This document shows, piece by piece, positions 21,113-45,430 of a stretch of DNA of 64,000 bases. Below the pieces are notes generated by a model. The model was not told the DNA's origin, searched no databases, and saw nothing but the letters and a program-made list of their open reading frames with translations. The translations under genes were made by a program, and so were the position numbers. Location of the stretch: positions 6,565 to 70,564 of the forward strand of contig CAVPJG010000011.1 of NCBI GenBank assembly GCA_963705205.1, given 5' to 3'. Origin of the DNA: an uncultured Thermoleophilia bacterium (lineage in GTDB: Bacteria; Actinomycetota; Thermoleophilia; UBA2241). Within the stretch, counting starts at the first letter, position 1; each line of letters starts with the position of its first letter.

Positions 21113-21724
21113 TCAGCCCGCTACCGTCGTCTCACCGAGCTGGAAACGCACGAAGCGGCGCACCTCGACGTTCTCGCCGATGACGCCGACGAGATCGGTG
21201 CGGACCTGCTCGATGGTGCGGTCCGGATCCTTCACGAAGGCCTGCTCCATGAGACAGGTCTCGCCGAAGAACTTCTCGAGCTTGCCCGTGATGATCTTCT
21301 CGACCACGTTCTCGGGCTTGCCCTTGATCTGGTCGGACTCGGCGTAGATGGCCTTCTCACGCGCGATGACGTCCTCGGGCACCTCGTCGCGATTGACCCA
21401 GATCGGAGCCGACGCGGCGACCTGCATGGCGAGGTCGTGGGTGAACTCCTTGAACGGCTCGCTGCGCGAGACGAAGTCGGTCTCGACGCCGACCTCGACG
21501 AGCACGCCGATCTTGCCGCCGGCGTGGATGTACGAATCCACGGCGCCGTCCTTGGTCGCCCGGGCGCTCTTCTTCTGGGCGGTGGCGAGCCCCTGCTTGC
21601 GCAGTTCGTCCATCGCCTTCTCCAGGTCGCCGGACGTCGCCGACAGCGCCTTCTTGCAGTCCATCATGCCCGCCCCGCTCTTCTCGCGGAGCTCCTTTAC
21701 CAGTGCAGCGGTGATCTCAGCCAC
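21113..21724 (-). CDS. tsf: Translation elongation factor Ts (short form)
   Basis: MAEITAALVKELREKSGAGMMDCKKAL...G.L.KA...LR..G...A.KK..R....G. Confidence 0.95.
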   Translation of the reverse strand: MAEITAALVKELREKSGAGMMDCKKALSATSGDLEKAMDELRKQGLATAQKKSARATKDGAVDSYIHAGGKIGVLVEVGVETDFVSRSEPFKEFTHDLAMQVAASAPIWVNRDEVPEDVIAREKAIYAESDQIKGKPENVVEKIITGKLEKFFGETCLMEQAFVKDPDRTIEQVRTDLVGVIGENVEVRRFVRFQLGETTVAG

Positions 21725-21797
21725 AGCACGATCCTTTCGTAGGGTCGGCGTTGTTCGTCGTTCTGATGCTTACTCGGCCGGCTTGCCGGCCTCGGCC

Positions 21798-23024
21798 TCA
21801 GGCTCCGCCGCCTTGGGTTCCTCGGCCTTTGGGCTCCTCGGCCTTGGGCTCCTCGGCCTTGGGCTCGGCCTTCTTGGCGGCGGGCTTCTTCGCCGGCTTC
21901 TCCTCGACGGTCCCGGCCGCGGACTTCTCGTCCTTCGCGGCCGGCTTGTCGGCCTTGGGCTCGGCCTTCGGCTCGGCCTTCGCGGCCGGCTTCTCGGCCT
22001 TGGGGGCGGCCTTCGCCTCGGGCTTCTCAGACTTCGCGACCTTCGGCTCGGCCTTGGCCTCAGCCTTGGCCGCCTCCCCGGGCTCGGCCTTCTTGGCCTC
22101 GGCCTTGGGCTCCGCCTTCTTCTCGGCAGGCTGCTTCTCGGCCTTCGGCTCGGCCTTGGCCTCGCCGGCCGCCTGGGCCGGAGCCTCGGCCTTGGCCTTC
22201 GCGGCCTCGGCGGCTGCGGCGGCGGCCTGCTCGGCCGCCTCACGCTCGGCGGCCGCGACGGCCGCGGCCACGGCGGCCTCTTCGGCGGCCTTGCGCTCGG
22301 CCTCGGCCTTCATCTCGGCCTCGGTGAGCAACTGGCGACCCTGGGCGACGGCGTCGGCCATCACGCGGATGATGAGCGAGCAGCTGCGGATCGCGTCGTC
22401 GTTGCCGGGGATGATGTAGTCGATCTCGTCCGGGTCGCAGTTGGTGTCGACGAGGCCGATGATCGGGATCTTGAGCTTGCGCGCCTCCTTGACGACGATC
22501 GCCTCCTTGCGGGGGTCGACCACGAAGACGGCGGCCGGCAGGCGGTCCATGCCGCCGACGCCGCCGAGGTTCTGCTCGAGCTTGCGCAGGTCGGCGCGCA
22601 GCTGCATGGCCTCGCGGGTCGGCAGCAGGTCGAGGGAGCCGTTCTCAGAGAGCTCGCGGAGCTCGTGCATGCGCTTGATCCGCTTGTTCAGCGTGGCGAA
22701 GTTGGTGAGCAGACCGCCCAGCCAGCGATTGGAGACGTAGGGCATGCCGACGCGCGCGGCCTGCTCCTGGATGGTCTCCTGGCACTGCTTCTTGGTGCCC
22801 ACGAAGAGCACGCTGCCGCCGCGCTCGGCGGTCTTCTTGAGGAAGTCGCAGGCCTCATCGATGAGGACCGTCGTCTTCTGCAGGTCGATGATGTAGATGC
22901 CGCCGCGCTCGCCGAAGATGAACTGCTTCATCTTGGGGTTCCAGCGCCGCGTCTGGTGGCCGAAGTGGACGCCGCTCGTGAGCAGGTCCTTCATGCTCAC
23001 CGTGTGCTGGGTGGTCGCAGGCAA
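21798..23024 (-). CDS. rpsB: 30S ribosomal protein S2 with a roughly 150-aa Ala/Glu/Lys/Pro-rich C-terminal extension
   Basis: TTG start at 23024 sits 6 nt after GAAGGAGG; (M)[50 protein letters not shown]... The tail is low-complexity AEPKAE repeats. The stop at 21798 follows an apparent 1-nt insertion. Without it the ORF would end at 21770 (..[17 protein letters not shown]). Confidence 0.93.
21820..21865 (-). repeat. Three tandem 15/16-nt units (cctcggcct(t)tgggct) encoding the (A)EEPK repeats of the S2 tail
   Basis: Units lie at 21820-21835 (16 nt, extra t), 21836-21850 and 21851-21865 (15 nt each, identical). Confidence 0.8.
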
Positions 23025-23221
23025 GGTTGCCTCCTTCTGAAGACGGTTACGGCGGCGGAGGGCCGGCGCGGGAGCGCCGGCGGCATACGCCACCTTCTGT
23101 TCCGGCAGACAGATCAGTGGAATCGGGCACGGCGAGCGCTCGCGAAACGCCTGGCGCCTCCCGCCCGACACCGCCACGGACCTGGGGGTCCGCCGGTTCG
23201 GCGTGGACACAACGGCCGGAA

Positions 23222-28525: not shown

Positions 28526-29185
28526 TCAGCAGTCCTCCGGCGCGTCCAGTCCCAGCCCGAGCTGCCGGTAGGCGACGCTGGCGAACGAGAGACGATGCAG
28601 CTCGCAGACGCCGTGCTCGCAGATGGCCGTCTGGTGCACCGCCGTCGCGTAGCCGACGTGGTGGTCGAAGCCGTACGCCGGATAGCTCGCGTGGAGGCCG
28701 CGCATCACCCGGTCGCGGGTGACCTTGGCGATGATCGACGCCGCCGCGATGGCGGCCGAGAGGTGGTCGCCGCCGACCACGGCGCGGTGGTCGCGCGCGC
28801 AGTCCGGCAGCGGAAAGCCGTCGACCAGGGCGACGTCAGGCGTAGGATCGAGCCGCTCGAGCGCCCGGGCCAGGCCCCGCAGGTTACAGCGGTGGAGGCC
28901 GTCGCGGTCGATGGTCGCGGGAGACAAGAGCACCACCACGACCTGGCGCGCCAGCCGCAGGATCTCGTCGTACAGCTCCTCACGACGCTGGCGGGTGAGG
29001 CGTTTGGAGTCGTCGAGGCCGGAGAGGGCTTCGCGGCCGGCTTTGTCCAGCATCGCGTAGTCGAGGCAGACGGCGGCGACGGAGAGCGGGCCGGCGAGAC
29101 AGCCGCGGCCGGCCTCGTCGGCGCCGGCGACGGCCGCGCCGTCGCTGCCGGCGGCCGCCAGGTCGAAGGCGAAGCGCTCCTGCAC
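28526..29185 (-). CDS. rnhB: Ribonuclease HII
   Basis: ..VAGADEAGRGCLAGPL.VAAV.., ..LDDSK.L....RE.L...I.., ..VDG......H.AVVGGD..S..IAAASIIAKV.RD..M. GTG start. Confidence 0.93.
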   Translation of the reverse strand: MQERFAFDLAAAGSDGAAVAGADEAGRGCLAGPLSVAAVCLDYAMLDKAGREALSGLDDSKRLTRQRREELYDEILRLARQVVVVLLSPATIDRDGLHRCNLRGLARALERLDPTPDVALVDGFPLPDCARDHRAVVGGDHLSAAIAAASIIAKVTRDRVMRGLHASYPAYGFDHHVGYATAVHQTAICEHGVCELHRLSFASVAYRQLGLGLDAPEDC

Positions 29186-29202
29186 TGCCCCGCCGCCGGT
29201 AG

Positions 29203-29321
29203 TCAGTCCGCGCCGCCCTGAGCCCTACGGCCGGCGGCGTGCTCAATAGCTCTGCCGTGCACTAGTCCACGCCGCCCTGGGCCCTACGCCCGGCGGCGTG
29301 CTCAATAGCTCTTCCGTGCAT
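29203..29321 (-). repeat. Two tandem 59-nt intercistronic repeat units (MIRU-like), each readable as a 19-codon mini-ORF
   Basis: Unit 1 is 29262-29321: ATG overlapping the lepB TAA (TAATG), MHGRAIEHAAGRRAQGGVD-TAG. Unit 2 is 29203-29262: GTG overlapping that TAG (TAGTG), (V)HGRAIEHAAGRRAQGGAD-TGA. The units differ at 6 of 59 nt. The core TGCACGGAAGAGCTATTGAGC recurs at 44662-44682. Confidence 0.85.
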
Positions 29322-29920
29322 TAGTCCACGCCACCGATGCGGCCGGGCGGCCAGTAGCGGGCGAACGCCTTGCCGACCAGCTGGCCGCGGGGCACCGGTC
29401 CGAACTCGCGGCTGTCGCCGCTGTCGACGCGGTTGTCGCCCATCATGAAGTAGTTGCCGGCCGGTACCGTGTAGGGCTGTTCCAGCGACCACGGCAGCCC
29501 GTTGTCGAACGGCTCTGTCGGCACGTACTCCCCTTCCGCGGTGCTGCGCACATAGGGTTCGTCCAGCTTGCTGCCGTTCACGTACACGGCGCCGTCCTTG
29601 AGGGAGATCTCGTCGCCCGGCATGCCGATGATGCGCTTGATGAGCACCGGACCCACCATCGGCGAATGGAACACGGTGATGTCGCCCCGCTGCGGGTCCG
29701 ACAACCGCCACGAGATGCGGTCGACCAGCACGCGGTCGCCGATCAGCAGGGTGTCCTCCATCGACTCGGAGGGGATGCGGTACGGCTTGACGAGGAACGC
29801 CTGGATGAGCAGCGCCACGGCGATGGCGACGACCGCCAGCACGACGTACTCGAGGATTGTCCGGCCCGTCGAGGCCTTCTTGTCACCCTTGCCGGGCTCC
29901 GCGTCCTGCGTGTCGTTCAT
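29321..29920 (-). CDS. lepB: Signal peptidase I (paralog 1)
   Basis: ..PYRIPSESMEDTLLIGDRVLV.., ..VFH......LIKRIIGMPGDEI.., ..YFMMGDNR..S.DSR.FGPV. Confidence 0.92.
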   Translation of the reverse strand: MNDTQDAEPGKGDKKASTGRTILEYVVLAVVAIAVALLIQAFLVKPYRIPSESMEDTLLIGDRVLVDRISWRLSDPQRGDITVFHSPMVGPVLIKRIIGMPGDEISLKDGAVYVNGSKLDEPYVRSTAEGEYVPTEPFDNGLPWSLEQPYTVPAGNYFMMGDNRVDSGDSREFGPVPRGQLVGKAFARYWPPGRIGGVD

Positions 29921-29950: not shown

Positions 29951-30511
29951 TCAGAGCGCCCGCAGACGTGAGACCGGCCAGTACGTCGCCAGCCCCTCGC
30001 CCACGATCGCCGCCCTCGGGACCGTGCCCCAGTCGCGGCTGTCGTCGCTGTCGGTGCGGTTGTCGCCCATGACGAAGTAGGTGCCCGCGGGCACCCGGTA
30101 CGGCTCGGCCAGAGACCATGGGTCGTGCAGGGTGCTGCCGACGATGGCCGCCTGCGCGACCGTGGGGTCGAGGCGGCCGCCGGTGCGGTGAACGTAGGGT
30201 TCGGCCGCCTTGTTCCGGTTCACGTAGAGGCGCCCGTCCCGCGCCTCGAGGAGGTCGCCGGGCACGCCGACGACGCGCTTGATGAACACGACGTCCGGGT
30301 CCTGGGGATACCGGAACACGATCACGTCACCGCGCCGCGGCTCCCGCAGGTGGTACACGACACGGTTGACGAGCACACGGTCTCCCGGGCGGAGCGTGTC
30401 GAGCATGGACCCTGAGGGGATGCGGTACGGCTTGACCAGCCACGCCTGGACCGCCAGCGCCACCAGCACGGCGACGGCGACGACCGCGACGTACTCGAGG
30501 ACGCGCTTCAC
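29951..30511 (-). CDS. lepB: Signal peptidase I (paralog 2)
   Basis: ..PYRIPSGSMLDTLRPGDRVLVN.., ..VFIKRVVGVPGD.., ..YFVMGDNRTDSDDSRDWG.VP. Confidence 0.92.
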   Translation of the reverse strand: MKRVLEYVAVVAVAVLVALAVQAWLVKPYRIPSGSMLDTLRPGDRVLVNRVVYHLREPRRGDVIVFRYPQDPDVVFIKRVVGVPGDLLEARDGRLYVNRNKAAEPYVHRTGGRLDPTVAQAAIVGSTLHDPWSLAEPYRVPAGTYFVMGDNRTDSDDSRDWGTVPRAAIVGEGLATYWPVSRLRAL

Positions 30512-42774: not shown

Positions 42775-42879
42775 TCAGTCCGTCCGCCGCGGGGCCCTTC
42801 GGGCCGACGGCCGCTCAACGAGCATTACTGTCGAGTGCACCTGCGGCGCACCCGACGTTGATCCGCCTACGGCGATCAA
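42775..42879 (-). repeat. Composite intercistronic repeat (type 2 unit fused in frame to a degenerate type 1 unit), readable as a 34-codon mini-ORF starting on the rpmF stop
   Basis: TTG overlaps the rpmF TGA (TTGA). The ORF reads (M)[36 protein letters not shown]. The first half matches the 32.2-kb spacer. The second half (TAATGCTCG..TTGAGCG...GGACGGACTGA) resembles the units at 29.2 and 44.6 kb. Confidence 0.6.
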
Positions 42880-44116: not shown

Positions 44117-44623
44117 CTACGAGCGCTGTACGCGCGGCGGATAGATGTCCGCCAGACGGCGGGCAACGGCCGGGGGGACCAGGTCGGCGACGGACCCCCC
44201 GAACGCGGCGATCTCCCTGACACCGCTCGAGCTCAGGAAGCTGTGCTCGGGCGAAGCCATCATGAAGACTGTTTCGATGTCGGGCGCCAGCTTCCTATTG
44301 AGCTGCGCCATGGCGAACTCGTACTCGAAGTCGGAGATGGCGCGCAGGCCCTTGAGGATGACGTGCGCGTCCCACCTGCGGGCGAACTCCACGACGAGCT
44401 CGTTGAAGCGGTCGACGACGATGTTGTCGTGCCCGGCGAGCGCCTCCCGCAGGAAGGCCTCTCGCTCCTCCGGCGTGAACAGCGGTGACTTGCGCTGCGG
44501 GATCTCGATGAGGCCGACGACGACGCGGCCGAACTTGGCCGCGCCGCGCGTGATGATGTCGAGGTGACCCACGGTCACAGGGTCGAACGTGCCCGGACAT
44601 ATGGCGGTGATGTTGCTGGGCAT
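44117..44623 (-). CDS. coaD: Phosphopantetheine adenylyltransferase
   Basis: ..AICPGTFDPVT.GHLDII.RGA..F..VVV......K.PLF...ER......A......V..F..L.V.FA........LKGLRA.SDFEYE..MA..N..L....ETVF. Confidence 0.95.
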   Translation of the reverse strand: MPSNITAICPGTFDPVTVGHLDIITRGAAKFGRVVVGLIEIPQRKSPLFTPEEREAFLREALAGHDNIVVDRFNELVVEFARRWDAHVILKGLRAISDFEYEFAMAQLNRKLAPDIETVFMMASPEHSFLSSSGVREIAAFGGSVADLVPPAVARRLADIYPPRVQRS

Positions 44624-44756
44624 CAGTCCGCCTCTCTCTGCGGCTGGCGCCCATCGAGGCGCTCAATAGCTCTTCCGAGCATTAGTCCGCCTCTCTCTGC
44701 GGCTGGCGCCCATCGCGCTGCATAGGACTCTGTGCACTTCGTGGCACTGCGGACAT
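44623..44756 (-). repeat. rsmD-coaD spacer fully tiled by two chained mini-ORFs built from a tandem repeat (MIRU-like, type 1)
   Basis: The rsmD TGA overlaps an ATG (TGATG): MSAVPRSAQSPMQRDGRQPQREAD-TAA (44682-44756). That TAA overlaps an ATG (TAATG): MLGRAIERLDGRQPQREAD-TGA (44623-44682). That TGA overlaps the coaD ATG (TGATG). The 3' 32 nt of the two units are identical. Confidence 0.85.
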
Positions 44757-45430
44757 CAGTCTGCCGATTCTCCTTCTGCCGGCGGCGCAGCGTCCGCCAC
44801 GAGGAACGTGACACGCGTGTCGCCGTAGCGTTTCTCCCGCACGACTGCCCAGGGCAGCCCGGCCGCCGTGCCGGCGGCCGACTCGACGACCAGCACCGCG
44901 CCGGGGACGAGCACCCGCCCGAGCAGTCTGACGAGGGCGGGACGGACCTGCTCGTAGACATCGTACGGCGGGTCCGCAAACACGAGAGTATATCGTGCGC
45001 CGCGACGGGCGTCAGCCGCCAGCGCCCGGCGCACGTCGCCGGCCAGCACGACGGCGTGAGGCGCCGGCGTGCCCGCGGGCGCCGGGGACTCAGCGGCGCG
45101 GAGCACCGGGACGCCGATCCGCTCCAGGTTGGCGCGCAAGGCGCGAAGGGCCGGCGGCGCCGACTCGATAAAGGTGCAGCTGACGGCGCCCCGGGAGAGC
45201 GCCTCGATGCCGAGGGCGCCGCTGCCGGCGAAGACGTCGAGAGCGGCGTGGCCGGCGAGCGGACCGGCCACCGCGCCGGCCGGGCTCGACGCCGCGGACT
45301 CCCGCGCCTGCGGCAGCGCTCCGAGCACGTCGAAGACGGCCTCTCGGACCTTGTCGGAGGTCGGCCGCGTGCCGCGCCCCGGAGGCGCGCTCAGCGGCCG
45401 ACCGCGCCACGCGCCGCCGACGACCCTCAC
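44756..45430 (-). CDS. rsmD: 16S rRNA (guanine966-N2)-methyltransferase RsmD
   Basis: MRVVGGAWRGR.L..P.G..TRPTSDKVREAVF..L.., ..LD.FAGSGALGIEALSRGA.., ..FADPPY. GTG start. Confidence 0.88.
   Translation of the reverse strand: MRVVGGAWRGRPLSAPPGRGTRPTSDKVREAVFDVLGALPQARESAASSPAGAVAGPLAGHAALDVFAGSGALGIEALSRGAVSCTFIESAPPALRALRANLERIGVPVLRAAESPAPAGTPAPHAVVLAGDVRRALAADARRGARYTLVFADPPYDVYEQVRPALVRLLGRVLVPGAVLVVESAAGTAAGLPWAVVREKRYGDTRVTFLVADAAPPAEGESAD

Follow-up and report, generated by a model that had tools for sequence, protein, structure and literature searches.

In a 64,000-nt stretch of DNA from an uncultured Thermoleophilia bacterium (contig CAVPJG010000011.1, positions 6,565 to 70,564; hereafter the window), the spacer between lepB and rnhB is occupied by two tandem copies of a 59-nt unit, which raises the question of what this repeat is and how it came to lie between two co-directional genes. 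An initial annotation had read the units as chained mini-open reading frames (mini-ORFs) and had likened them to mycobacterial interspersed repetitive units (MIRUs). We find that the units belong to a dispersed family with a near-constant core and a covarying hairpin, and that the spacer is probably filled by two adjacent copies of a small insertion element, non-autonomous and particular to an uncultured-Thermoleophilia clade, in which a relay of stop and start codons would keep insertion near-neutral.

Anatomy of the lepB-rnhB array

On the minus strand, lepB (signal peptidase I; 29321..29920; Pfam Peptidase_S26, E = 7.7e-52) ends with ...GGTGGCGTGGAC-TAA, and the last A of this stop codon is also the A of an ATG that starts MHGRAIEHAAGRRAQGGVD-TAG (TAATG; 29262-29321, a 19-codon ORF by translation). 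The TAG overlaps in turn a GTG that starts VHGRAIEHAAGRRAQGGAD-TGA (TAGTG; 29203-29262). The TGA that ends the chain (29203..29205) is separated by 17 nt (CTACCGGCGGCGGGGCA) from the GTG of rnhB (RNase HII; 28526..29185; Pfam RNase_HII), a spacing also found in the relative L036, where no unit is present. Tandem Repeats Finder reported the repeat at 29205-29332 with a period of 59, 92% matches, a score of 221 and 2.2 copies, the last value arising because the repeat extends ~11 nt inside lepB.

Unit 1 (29265..29323) consists of TAA-TGCACGGAAGAGCTATTGAGC, a hairpin and GGAC, and scores 83.8 bits with the covariance model R1 introduced below, while unit 2 (29206..29264) consists of TAG-TGCACGGCAGAGCTATTGAGC, a hairpin and GGAC, and scores 44.1 bits. 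The two are ~90% identical, with 6 differences among 59 positions. Their 21-nt cores lie at 29300..29320 and 29241..29261 and their hairpins at 29269..29299 (unit 1, ACGCCGCC...GGCGGCGT, -23.8 kcal/mol) and 29210..29240 (unit 2). Folding gives each unit an outer stem of 8-9 bp, (C)ACGCCGCC/GGCGGCGT(G), and an inner stem, GGGC/GCCC. The description in the initial annotation (a two-copy tandem repeat with a TAATG/TAGTG chain, 19-codon mini-ORFs, a 17-nt gap, six differences between two 59-nt units and an inverted repeat enclosing GGGC..GCCC) was thus accurate in every particular. Its report that the core recurs in the rsmD-coaD spacer was likewise correct: the core is found at 44661-44681 with one mismatch, and none of 100 shuffles of the window gave any match.

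A family in uncultured Thermoleophilia

The core pattern GCNCGGNAGAGCTATTGAGC was scanned against one genome per species (185,579 species), and 33 stretches were returned. Seven of them (L005, L009, L017, L019, L020, L024 and L026) are chance core matches from unrelated lower-GC taxa in which the rest of the anatomy is missing. The remaining 26 show the full anatomy, and all come from Thermoleophilia-type metagenome-assembled genomes (MAGs; ~19). The core is therefore not limited to the two loci seen at first: a third site was found in the window, and 18 further distinct sites lie in the 26 fetched stretches. Two MAGs carry labels other than Thermoleophilia ("Actinomycetes" and, in one case, "Deltaproteobacteria"), with the same gene contexts and a GC content of 71-73%. 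The latter, MAG248, contributes L004 and L027, where the element stands in contexts as in the Thermoleophilia MAG loci at 71-73% GC; L004 is orthologous to L013, and MAG248 is probably mislabelled or contaminated. The core was absent from the cultured-species genomes of the same scan and from the viral contigs and plasmids searched. No Mycobacterium was among the scan matches, which speaks for the absence of the exact core only.

The architecture common to the family is (N)AC-TRA (R, A or G), TGCACGGAAGAGCTATTGAGC, a hairpin of 25-33 nt that directly abuts GAGC and GGAC, and then a stop codon or the next unit; written as a pattern, the element is TRATGCNCGGNAGAGCTATTGAGC-N25-33-GGAC. Units are 53-61 nt long (mode 59) and form arrays of 1-4. 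The longest array seen has four units with a 57-nt period downstream of a dnaJ-like gene, and spans L029 and L006, which are adjoining stretches of contig CAVOVA010000005.1. Covariance model R1 was built from an alignment (A1) of 29 distinct units. Rfam gave no match in the window at the gathering threshold and only noise at the locus with E ≤ 10, so that membership in an Rfam family was rejected. A literature search turned up nothing on repeats in Thermoleophilia, and the core motif is never printed in the searchable literature.

The position of the element is as regular as its anatomy. Genes were called crudely, as long ORFs with a high GC content at third codon positions (GC3), and upstream genes within 400 nt were considered. 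Such a gene was called for 22 arrays, and in each of them it shares the strand of the element (~18 independent sites, p = 8e-6); of 24 downstream genes, 22 are co-directional. At 13 of 20 distinct sites, the first core is preceded by a TRA that serves as the in-frame stop codon of a genuine upstream gene, while an overlap with the downstream start occurs at a few loci only (coaD, L012, L016 and L032). The neighbors are ordinary, functionally unrelated genes: PBP2->RodA, DnaJ->HspR-like, ->LysA-like, ->GlmM-like, ->RpiB, ABC permeases and L32->AAA_26.

A covarying hairpin

Stem sequences are wholly different among loci, as illustrated by ACGCCGCC/GGCGGCGT, GCCTC/GAGGC, GAGGCACG/CGTGCCTC and GACGCGCC/GGCGCGTC. 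The anchored outer stem nevertheless averages 5.7 bp, compared with 2.84 ± 0.23 in shuffles. In alignment A1, pairing covers 86.9% of the cells, compared with 61.0 ± 2.1 for column shuffles, none of which (0 of 500) reached the observed value; both sides change in 8 of 9 pairs, and pairing falls to 21-49% when the partner is slid by 1-3 columns. The hairpin is real and covaries strongly. Its support comes from this covariation and not from energy, because the folding energy of the array is unexceptional (z = -1.25), a measure that is uninformative in DNA of 71% GC (window, 71.5%).

Within the array (29186-29340, minus strand), the 5' arm of a hairpin has two possible partners: its own 3' arm, or an upstream copy of the 3' arm at the lepB end or in the previous unit. 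The alternative fold, which is adopted by the minimum-free-energy structure, puts the 21-nt core in a loop, and a flip-flop between the two folds is possible.

The initial annotation had also pointed out that the 3' end of each unit mimics that of lepB. This is so at lepB, where the similarity between flank and unit 3' end reaches ~12 nt, but it holds at lepB only: with within-array rows removed, flanks are about as similar to the unit of their own locus (~5.5/14) as to those of other loci (5.2/14). A hairpin 3' arm copied from the upstream flank, by a long target duplication or guide-target pairing, was consequently rejected as a family rule. The lepB end itself is native rather than derived from the element, because the LepB C-terminus, ...RIGG[VIA][DNHE] (RIGGVD in the window), is conserved over the 120 LepB homologs listed.

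Empty and filled sites

The lepB-rnhB spacer holds two units in the window, one in L034, whose LepB is the closest (91% identity), and none in five relatives (L035, 87%; L036, 90%; L037, 82%; L038, 91%; L039, 88%). An empty junction reads, for example, ...GGCGGCGTGGAC-TGA-gggccgaaggcggggca-GTGCAGGAGCGC, with 17 nt followed by GTG, and is colinear with the window on both sides; all five empty lepB sites read ...GAC/AAC/GAT-TGA. The single 59-nt unit of L034 keeps the phase, with TAATG, 19 codons and TGA. Both the copy-number variation that the initial annotation had expected (0, 0, 0, 0, 0, 1 and 2 units at this site, and variation at other orthologous sites) and the preservation of the stop/start phase in a relative were thus found.

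A second site lies between an rsmD-like methyltransferase gene (44756..45430, minus strand; Pfam Cons_hypoth95; stop codon TGA at 44756-44758) and a coaD-like gene (44117..44623, minus strand; Pfam CTP_transf_like). In six relatives with 90-96% CoaD identity, the two genes meet as ...GCAGAC-TGATG-CCCAGC, a native -1 overlap; a look-up of the window's own CoaD gave no identical protein on record. In the window, 133 nt made up of a decayed and an intact unit stand between two copies of GAC-TGATG. The decayed unit (44685..44758, minus strand; 74 nt; nhmmer E = 3.8e-11) retains an open 25-codon ORF from TGATG to TAATG, and the intact unit (44626..44684, minus strand; 59 nt; model R1, 76.9 bits), with a GCCTC...GAGGC hairpin, carries a 19-codon ORF that ends at the TGATG of coaD, where the coaD ATG overlaps the last TGA. 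The chain is therefore complete: rsmD-TGATG-25 codons-TAATG-19 codons-TGATG-coaD. In L054 and L057, the junction ...cagcTGAggaccATTGAGCagcctaccgccgcggcgcgaggtctcTGATGccg is present ~60 nt upstream of coaD. It seems to be a unit with ~17 nt of the core missing but with its hairpin, and the last TGATG that leads into coaD, still in place; model R1 does not detect this remnant at E ≤ 0.01.

The third window unit, found by model R1 (37.5 bits, E = 7.5e-8), is decayed. It lies at 42775..42831 on the minus strand, in the spacer between rpmF (L32; Pfam L32p) and an AAA_26 gene, has a "master"-type hairpin and a 9-nt deletion in the core, and adjoins no stop codon. More than 25 relatives have no unit here, including L041, which has the long spacer of the window, and L008 has two intact units in the orthologous spacer. 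Because model R1 found no unit in 0.5 Mb of CoaD-anchored relatives, the element is sporadic and was recently active in the lineage of the window.

Copy number also varies elsewhere: orthologous dnaJ->hspR sites have 1, 1 and 4 units, and orthologous cobO-like->lysA-like sites have 2 and 1. The "master" hairpin GGCCGCCGGCCCGAAGGGCCCCGCGGCGGAC occurs at at least six non-orthologous sites and the GCCTC/GAGGC type at at least four, which is what active sub-lineages would produce. Between PBP2 and rodA, two species whose third codon positions are 46% identical (synonymous saturation) have three units each, which differ in their hairpins and in length (57 and 60 nt); these sequences suggest repeated hits on a GGCGAC-TRA hot spot.

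Target, polarity and a model of insertion

The two ends of the insert differ in their stop codons. Native genes in these genomes end with TGA (115), TAG (35) and rarely TAA (8 of 158, 5%), whereas 21 of 25 left junctions have TAA (p = 2e-17). At the right ends of arrays, stop codons match native usage, with 12 TGA, 3 TAG and no TAA. The excess of TAA on the left, together with the native-like stops on the right, indicates that the left TAA comes with the element, which inserts after (G)GAC and ahead of the native stop codon. Consistently, NAC precedes 24 of 28 left junctions, compared with 8.9% of native gene ends, and GGAC (or NAC) stands on both sides of the insert, as a direct repeat of 3-4 nt only. 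At the lepB locus, the stop codon at 29321-29323 is supplied by the element, while the chain-ending TGA is probably the original lepB stop, as judged from the five empty sites and from the stop usage at right ends.

We propose that the element is 5'-TAA-TGCACGGAAGAGCTATTGAGC, a 25-33-nt hairpin and GGAC-3', ~59 nt in all, and that it inserts with a single orientation, after a pre-existing (G)GAC (or NAC) and ahead of the T(G/A)(A/G) next to it, usually the last codon and the stop codon of a gene inside an operon. The upstream gene would then end at the TAA of the element, whose last A would form an ATG with the following TG, and in 59-nt units the 19-codon ORF would run across the hairpin to the duplicated GGAC and the original stop codon of the gene. 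On a transcript that presumably includes the element, a ribosome terminating on the upstream gene may re-initiate on the unit, melt the hairpin as it translates and terminate at the native stop codon, where the original downstream arrangement would resume. With coupling preserved, insertion would be nearly neutral, and only insertions of this kind would survive. Arrays may arise by local duplication or by re-insertion, and they can grow since the target is restored by every unit. A mobilizing enzyme would probably recognize the near-constant core and the hairpin, whose structure is conserved.

In having no terminal inverted repeats, a fixed polarity, a short, specific target and a subterminal hairpin, the element recalls single-strand systems such as IS200/IS605 or the repetitive extragenic palindromes (REPs) with their REP-associated tyrosine transposases (RAYTs). 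It is tempting, if speculative, to go further and assume mobilization through single-stranded DNA (or an RNA intermediate) by an enzyme that reads one hairpin and a guide-like core and targets (G)GAC^TRA, and/or host co-option of the element as a translational-coupling or Shine-Dalgarno-sequestering module in essential operons. We hold this extension to be a good deal less probable than the insertion model itself; if true, it would describe a minimal, single-hairpin, stop-codon-homing element with a self-evolved stop/start relay.

A proposed relay of stop and start codons

A -1 overlap of stop and start codons, of the kind formed by TAA-TG, is typical of termination-reinitiation coupling (PMC12548453). 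Because TAA-TG recreates this overlap, a terminating ribosome could restart on the unit. The overlapping-ORF layout is present in units of 59, 56 and 53 nt, the reading frame continues across units of 57 and 60 nt, and it is broken in those of 58 and 61 nt. The chain of 19-codon mini-ORFs reported in the initial annotation is thus a property of lepB-rnhB and similar arrays and not of the whole family. Frame-breaking lengths are under-represented (4 of 25, p = 0.046). At rsmD-coaD the native TGATG overlap has been rebuilt three times, and the decayed unit is still open and in frame after a net change of +15 nt. In hairpins of the GCCTC/GAGGC type, direct reading of the sequence places a GAGG 8-10 nt ahead of the next ATG, where it is sequestered by the stem. 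A relay fits the rebuilt TGATG, the scarcity of frame-breaking units, the in-frame 57- and 60-nt arrays and the sequestered GAGG.

Weighing the insertion model against its alternatives

Several observations weigh against an inserted element with a ribosome relay. Units of 57, 58, 60 and 61 nt give no 19-codon chain, and the overlap with a stop codon is not universal, as about 6 of 20 sites stand alone in spacers. The two ends, TAATGCACGG... and ...CGGAC, do not form terminal inverted repeats. Exact-core loci number just 1-4 per genome, and the constancy of the core among loci is partly imposed by the search pattern. A sequence-specific enzyme would need to read shape only, as hairpin sequences differ widely between loci, and the covariation may alternatively reflect host-level selection on RNA. 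The balance of G.U and A.C in the stems (10:10) does not tell whether the structure forms in the sense RNA or in DNA, and by GC skew the orientations of transcription and replication coincide and are inseparable here. A tblastn search with IS608 TnpA found no match in 0.83 Mb, and no RAYT-like or HUH/Y1 gene in the fetched DNA; this test is weak, with low power.

The strongest alternative is that the unit is a cis-acting RNA module maintained by the host, such as a hairpin for processing or stabilization of mRNA, a binding site for a protein, or a device for coupling or attenuation in operons, rather than a selfish insertion. The strong compensatory covariation of the hairpin would be expected of such a module, as would the sense orientation, which extends to the free-standing intergenic copies. 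At dnaJ->hspR, conservation of the element roughly equals that of the coding flanks and exceeds that of part of the spacer next to it (core, 100%; hairpin, 83-93%; third codon positions, ~75% identical; part of the spacer, 33-39% alignable), so that some constraint at the level of the host is conceivable. In arrays, the 5' arm may pair with an upstream or a downstream 3' arm. RNAalifold also proposes a second helix in the invariant block, UAAUGC/GCUAUUG under a GGAA loop, but with only -1.2 kcal/mol and invariant columns, and hence no covariation, it was kept as an idea only. Against a module of this kind stand the sporadic occurrence at all three window sites among relatives with 82-96% protein identity, the lack of any unit in the 0.5 Mb of related DNA, the functionally unrelated flanking genes, the tolerated decay of copies, the lack of an Rfam match and the lack of a terminator-like or promoter-like site in a scan of the lepB-rnhB spacer. 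We consider this alternative improbable. The two readings are compatible in that a mobile element can be co-opted.

It is very unlikely that the 19-residue mini-ORFs (MHGRAIE...) encode functional micropeptides. Each is open, begins with ATG or GTG and is suitably placed for re-initiation, but past the seven core codons the peptide is dictated by the hairpin of each locus, and unit lengths of 57, 58, 60 and 61 nt alter or fuse the frame. Moreover, the codons GGA, AGA, GCT and ATT of the core show no synonymous drift in a genome with a GC3 of ~0.9, a constancy that is partly imposed by the search, and we take this as a sign of nucleotide rather than peptide constraint. The mini-ORFs are more likely a device that renders insertion harmless than peptide genes.

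Even less credible is a one-off, local tandem duplication of spacer DNA through slippage during replication, without a family or mobility. The lepB-rnhB units lie side by side, share 90% identity and extend over the lepB 3' end, as slippage would have it; the same core-hairpin-GGAC anatomy, however, recurs at 20 distinct sites in ~19 genomes in addition to the three window sites, and this dispersed family refutes slippage as the full explanation. The one-unit state exists in L034, and slippage accounts for the step from one unit to two only. A degenerate array of the CRISPR type or of another repeat-spacer kind, which a ~28-nt conserved block alternating with ~30-nt variable segments might bring to mind, can be put aside with near certainty, since the would-be spacers are palindromic and nearly identical within an array, arrays have at most four units with many single-unit loci, and the surroundings are housekeeping operons with no cas genes nearby.

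Neighboring genes and other repeats in the window

Two signal peptidase I (S26) genes lie in tandem upstream of rnhB on the minus strand (29951-30511 and 29321-29920). The pair is kept in L034, L037 and L038, and the element is found only after the second gene. One LepB homolog, P0102 (278 aa), combines S26 and RNase HII domains in a single database protein; it may be a gene-calling fusion over the lepB-rnhB junction, possibly by way of an in-frame repeat array.

The largest tandem-repeat block of the window (21790-22324; periods 12, 15 and 45) lies inside an ORF at 21798-23210 on the minus strand and encodes a long Ala/Glu/Pro/Lys-rich (AEPKAE-like) C-terminal tail. The protein of this ORF, directly upstream of EF-Ts (21113-21724), is presumably ribosomal protein S2, as read by eye.

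Significance

To our knowledge, how intercistronic repeats of the MIRU type move, and whether their small ORFs act, has never been settled since 1997. The element described here is apparently a second, independent and apparently undescribed family of such repeats. It does not introduce a new biological principle, and its value lies in offering a clean system in which the questions of movement and of overlapping ORFs become directly testable: empty and filled sites are clear, target and polarity are defined (with the TAA of the element in place and the native stop pushed downstream), and a near-constant core is combined with a covarying hairpin. These features provide handles for a search for the mobilizing enzyme by phylogenetic co-occurrence and for tests of the ribosome relay. 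In practical terms, gene callers will misplace stop codons or fuse ORFs at element sites, and the arrays could serve as variable-number tandem-repeat markers for abundant uncultured actinobacteria of soil and sediment.

Relation to known repeat systems

Correia/NEMIS, ERIC, RUP and RPE elements are also small, structured, dispersed repeats that are co-transcribed with their neighbors and can affect mRNA processing or translation. They differ in having terminal inverted repeats, TA-like target duplications and both orientations, and we know of none that gives the upstream gene a stop codon with an overlapping start. Membership among classical miniature inverted-repeat transposable elements was rejected, as the ends are not inverted repeats and the direct repeat is only 3-4 nt long.

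REPs and the bacterial interspersed mosaic elements (BIMEs) that contain them share with our element a short, GC-rich extragenic hairpin and a conserved single-stranded 5' motif. REPs are often located in operons and transcribed, and their mobilization in trans through recognition of a single-stranded hairpin has been proposed. However, REPs have a 5' GTAG and typically occur as inverted pairs or clusters in both orientations, whereas the copies described here lack GTAG, are all direct and sense, abut stop codons and carry start and stop codons. Membership in the REP/BIME group was rejected for want of GTAG and of inverted pairs.

With the miniature members of IS200/IS605 (palindrome-associated transposable elements), our element is compatible in several respects. 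They likewise have no terminal inverted repeats, are inserted in a strict orientation on the 3' side of a short, specific target (4-5 nt), and have a subterminal hairpin, at a distance here of ~20 nt on the left and 4-7 nt on the right; the right end of the element resembles the target, and the strand bias is one that would track the direction of replication. In contrast, a single hairpin would here serve both ends, and the unit is 59 nt long compared with 100-400 nt in known examples. GGAC also seems to be duplicated, while IS200/IS605 elements make no duplication, although the sequence fits a duplication and a right end identical to the target equally well.

MIRUs are short tandem units inside operons, with ORFs that overlap neighboring genes and with empty and filled sites flanked by a short direct repeat (Supply et al. 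1997, as summarized in PMC3184786 and PMC12548453). The likeness proposed in the initial annotation holds for array structure, operon location, orientation and empty and filled sites. Units of 40-100 bp in short tandem arrays correspond to units of 53-61 nt in arrays of 1-4 at 20 sites; both lie between co-directional operon genes in one orientation to transcription, contain ORFs, here in part of the units and mostly at the upstream stop, that overlap neighboring genes and would preserve translational coupling, show a direct repeat of about four nucleotides that suggests insertion, vary in copy number between relatives, and have GC-rich internal inverted repeats and an actinobacterial host. 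The likeness does not extend to the geometry of coupling, which in MIRUs has been described at the downstream start with a -4 overlap (PMC12548453) and here lies at the upstream stop (-1, TAATG/TRATG) with an element-borne TAA, nor to a family-wide ORF chain. A 21-nt near-constant core with a covarying, locus-specific hairpin, the best-supported feature of the family, is outside the classical description of MIRUs, loci per genome are far fewer (1-4 with the exact core), the element is found in uncultured Thermoleophilia with no matches in other groups, and its sequence is, as far as we can judge, unrelated. As an analogy rather than a claim of family membership, the element is, functionally and topologically, the closest thing to MIRUs that we know of outside the mycobacteria.

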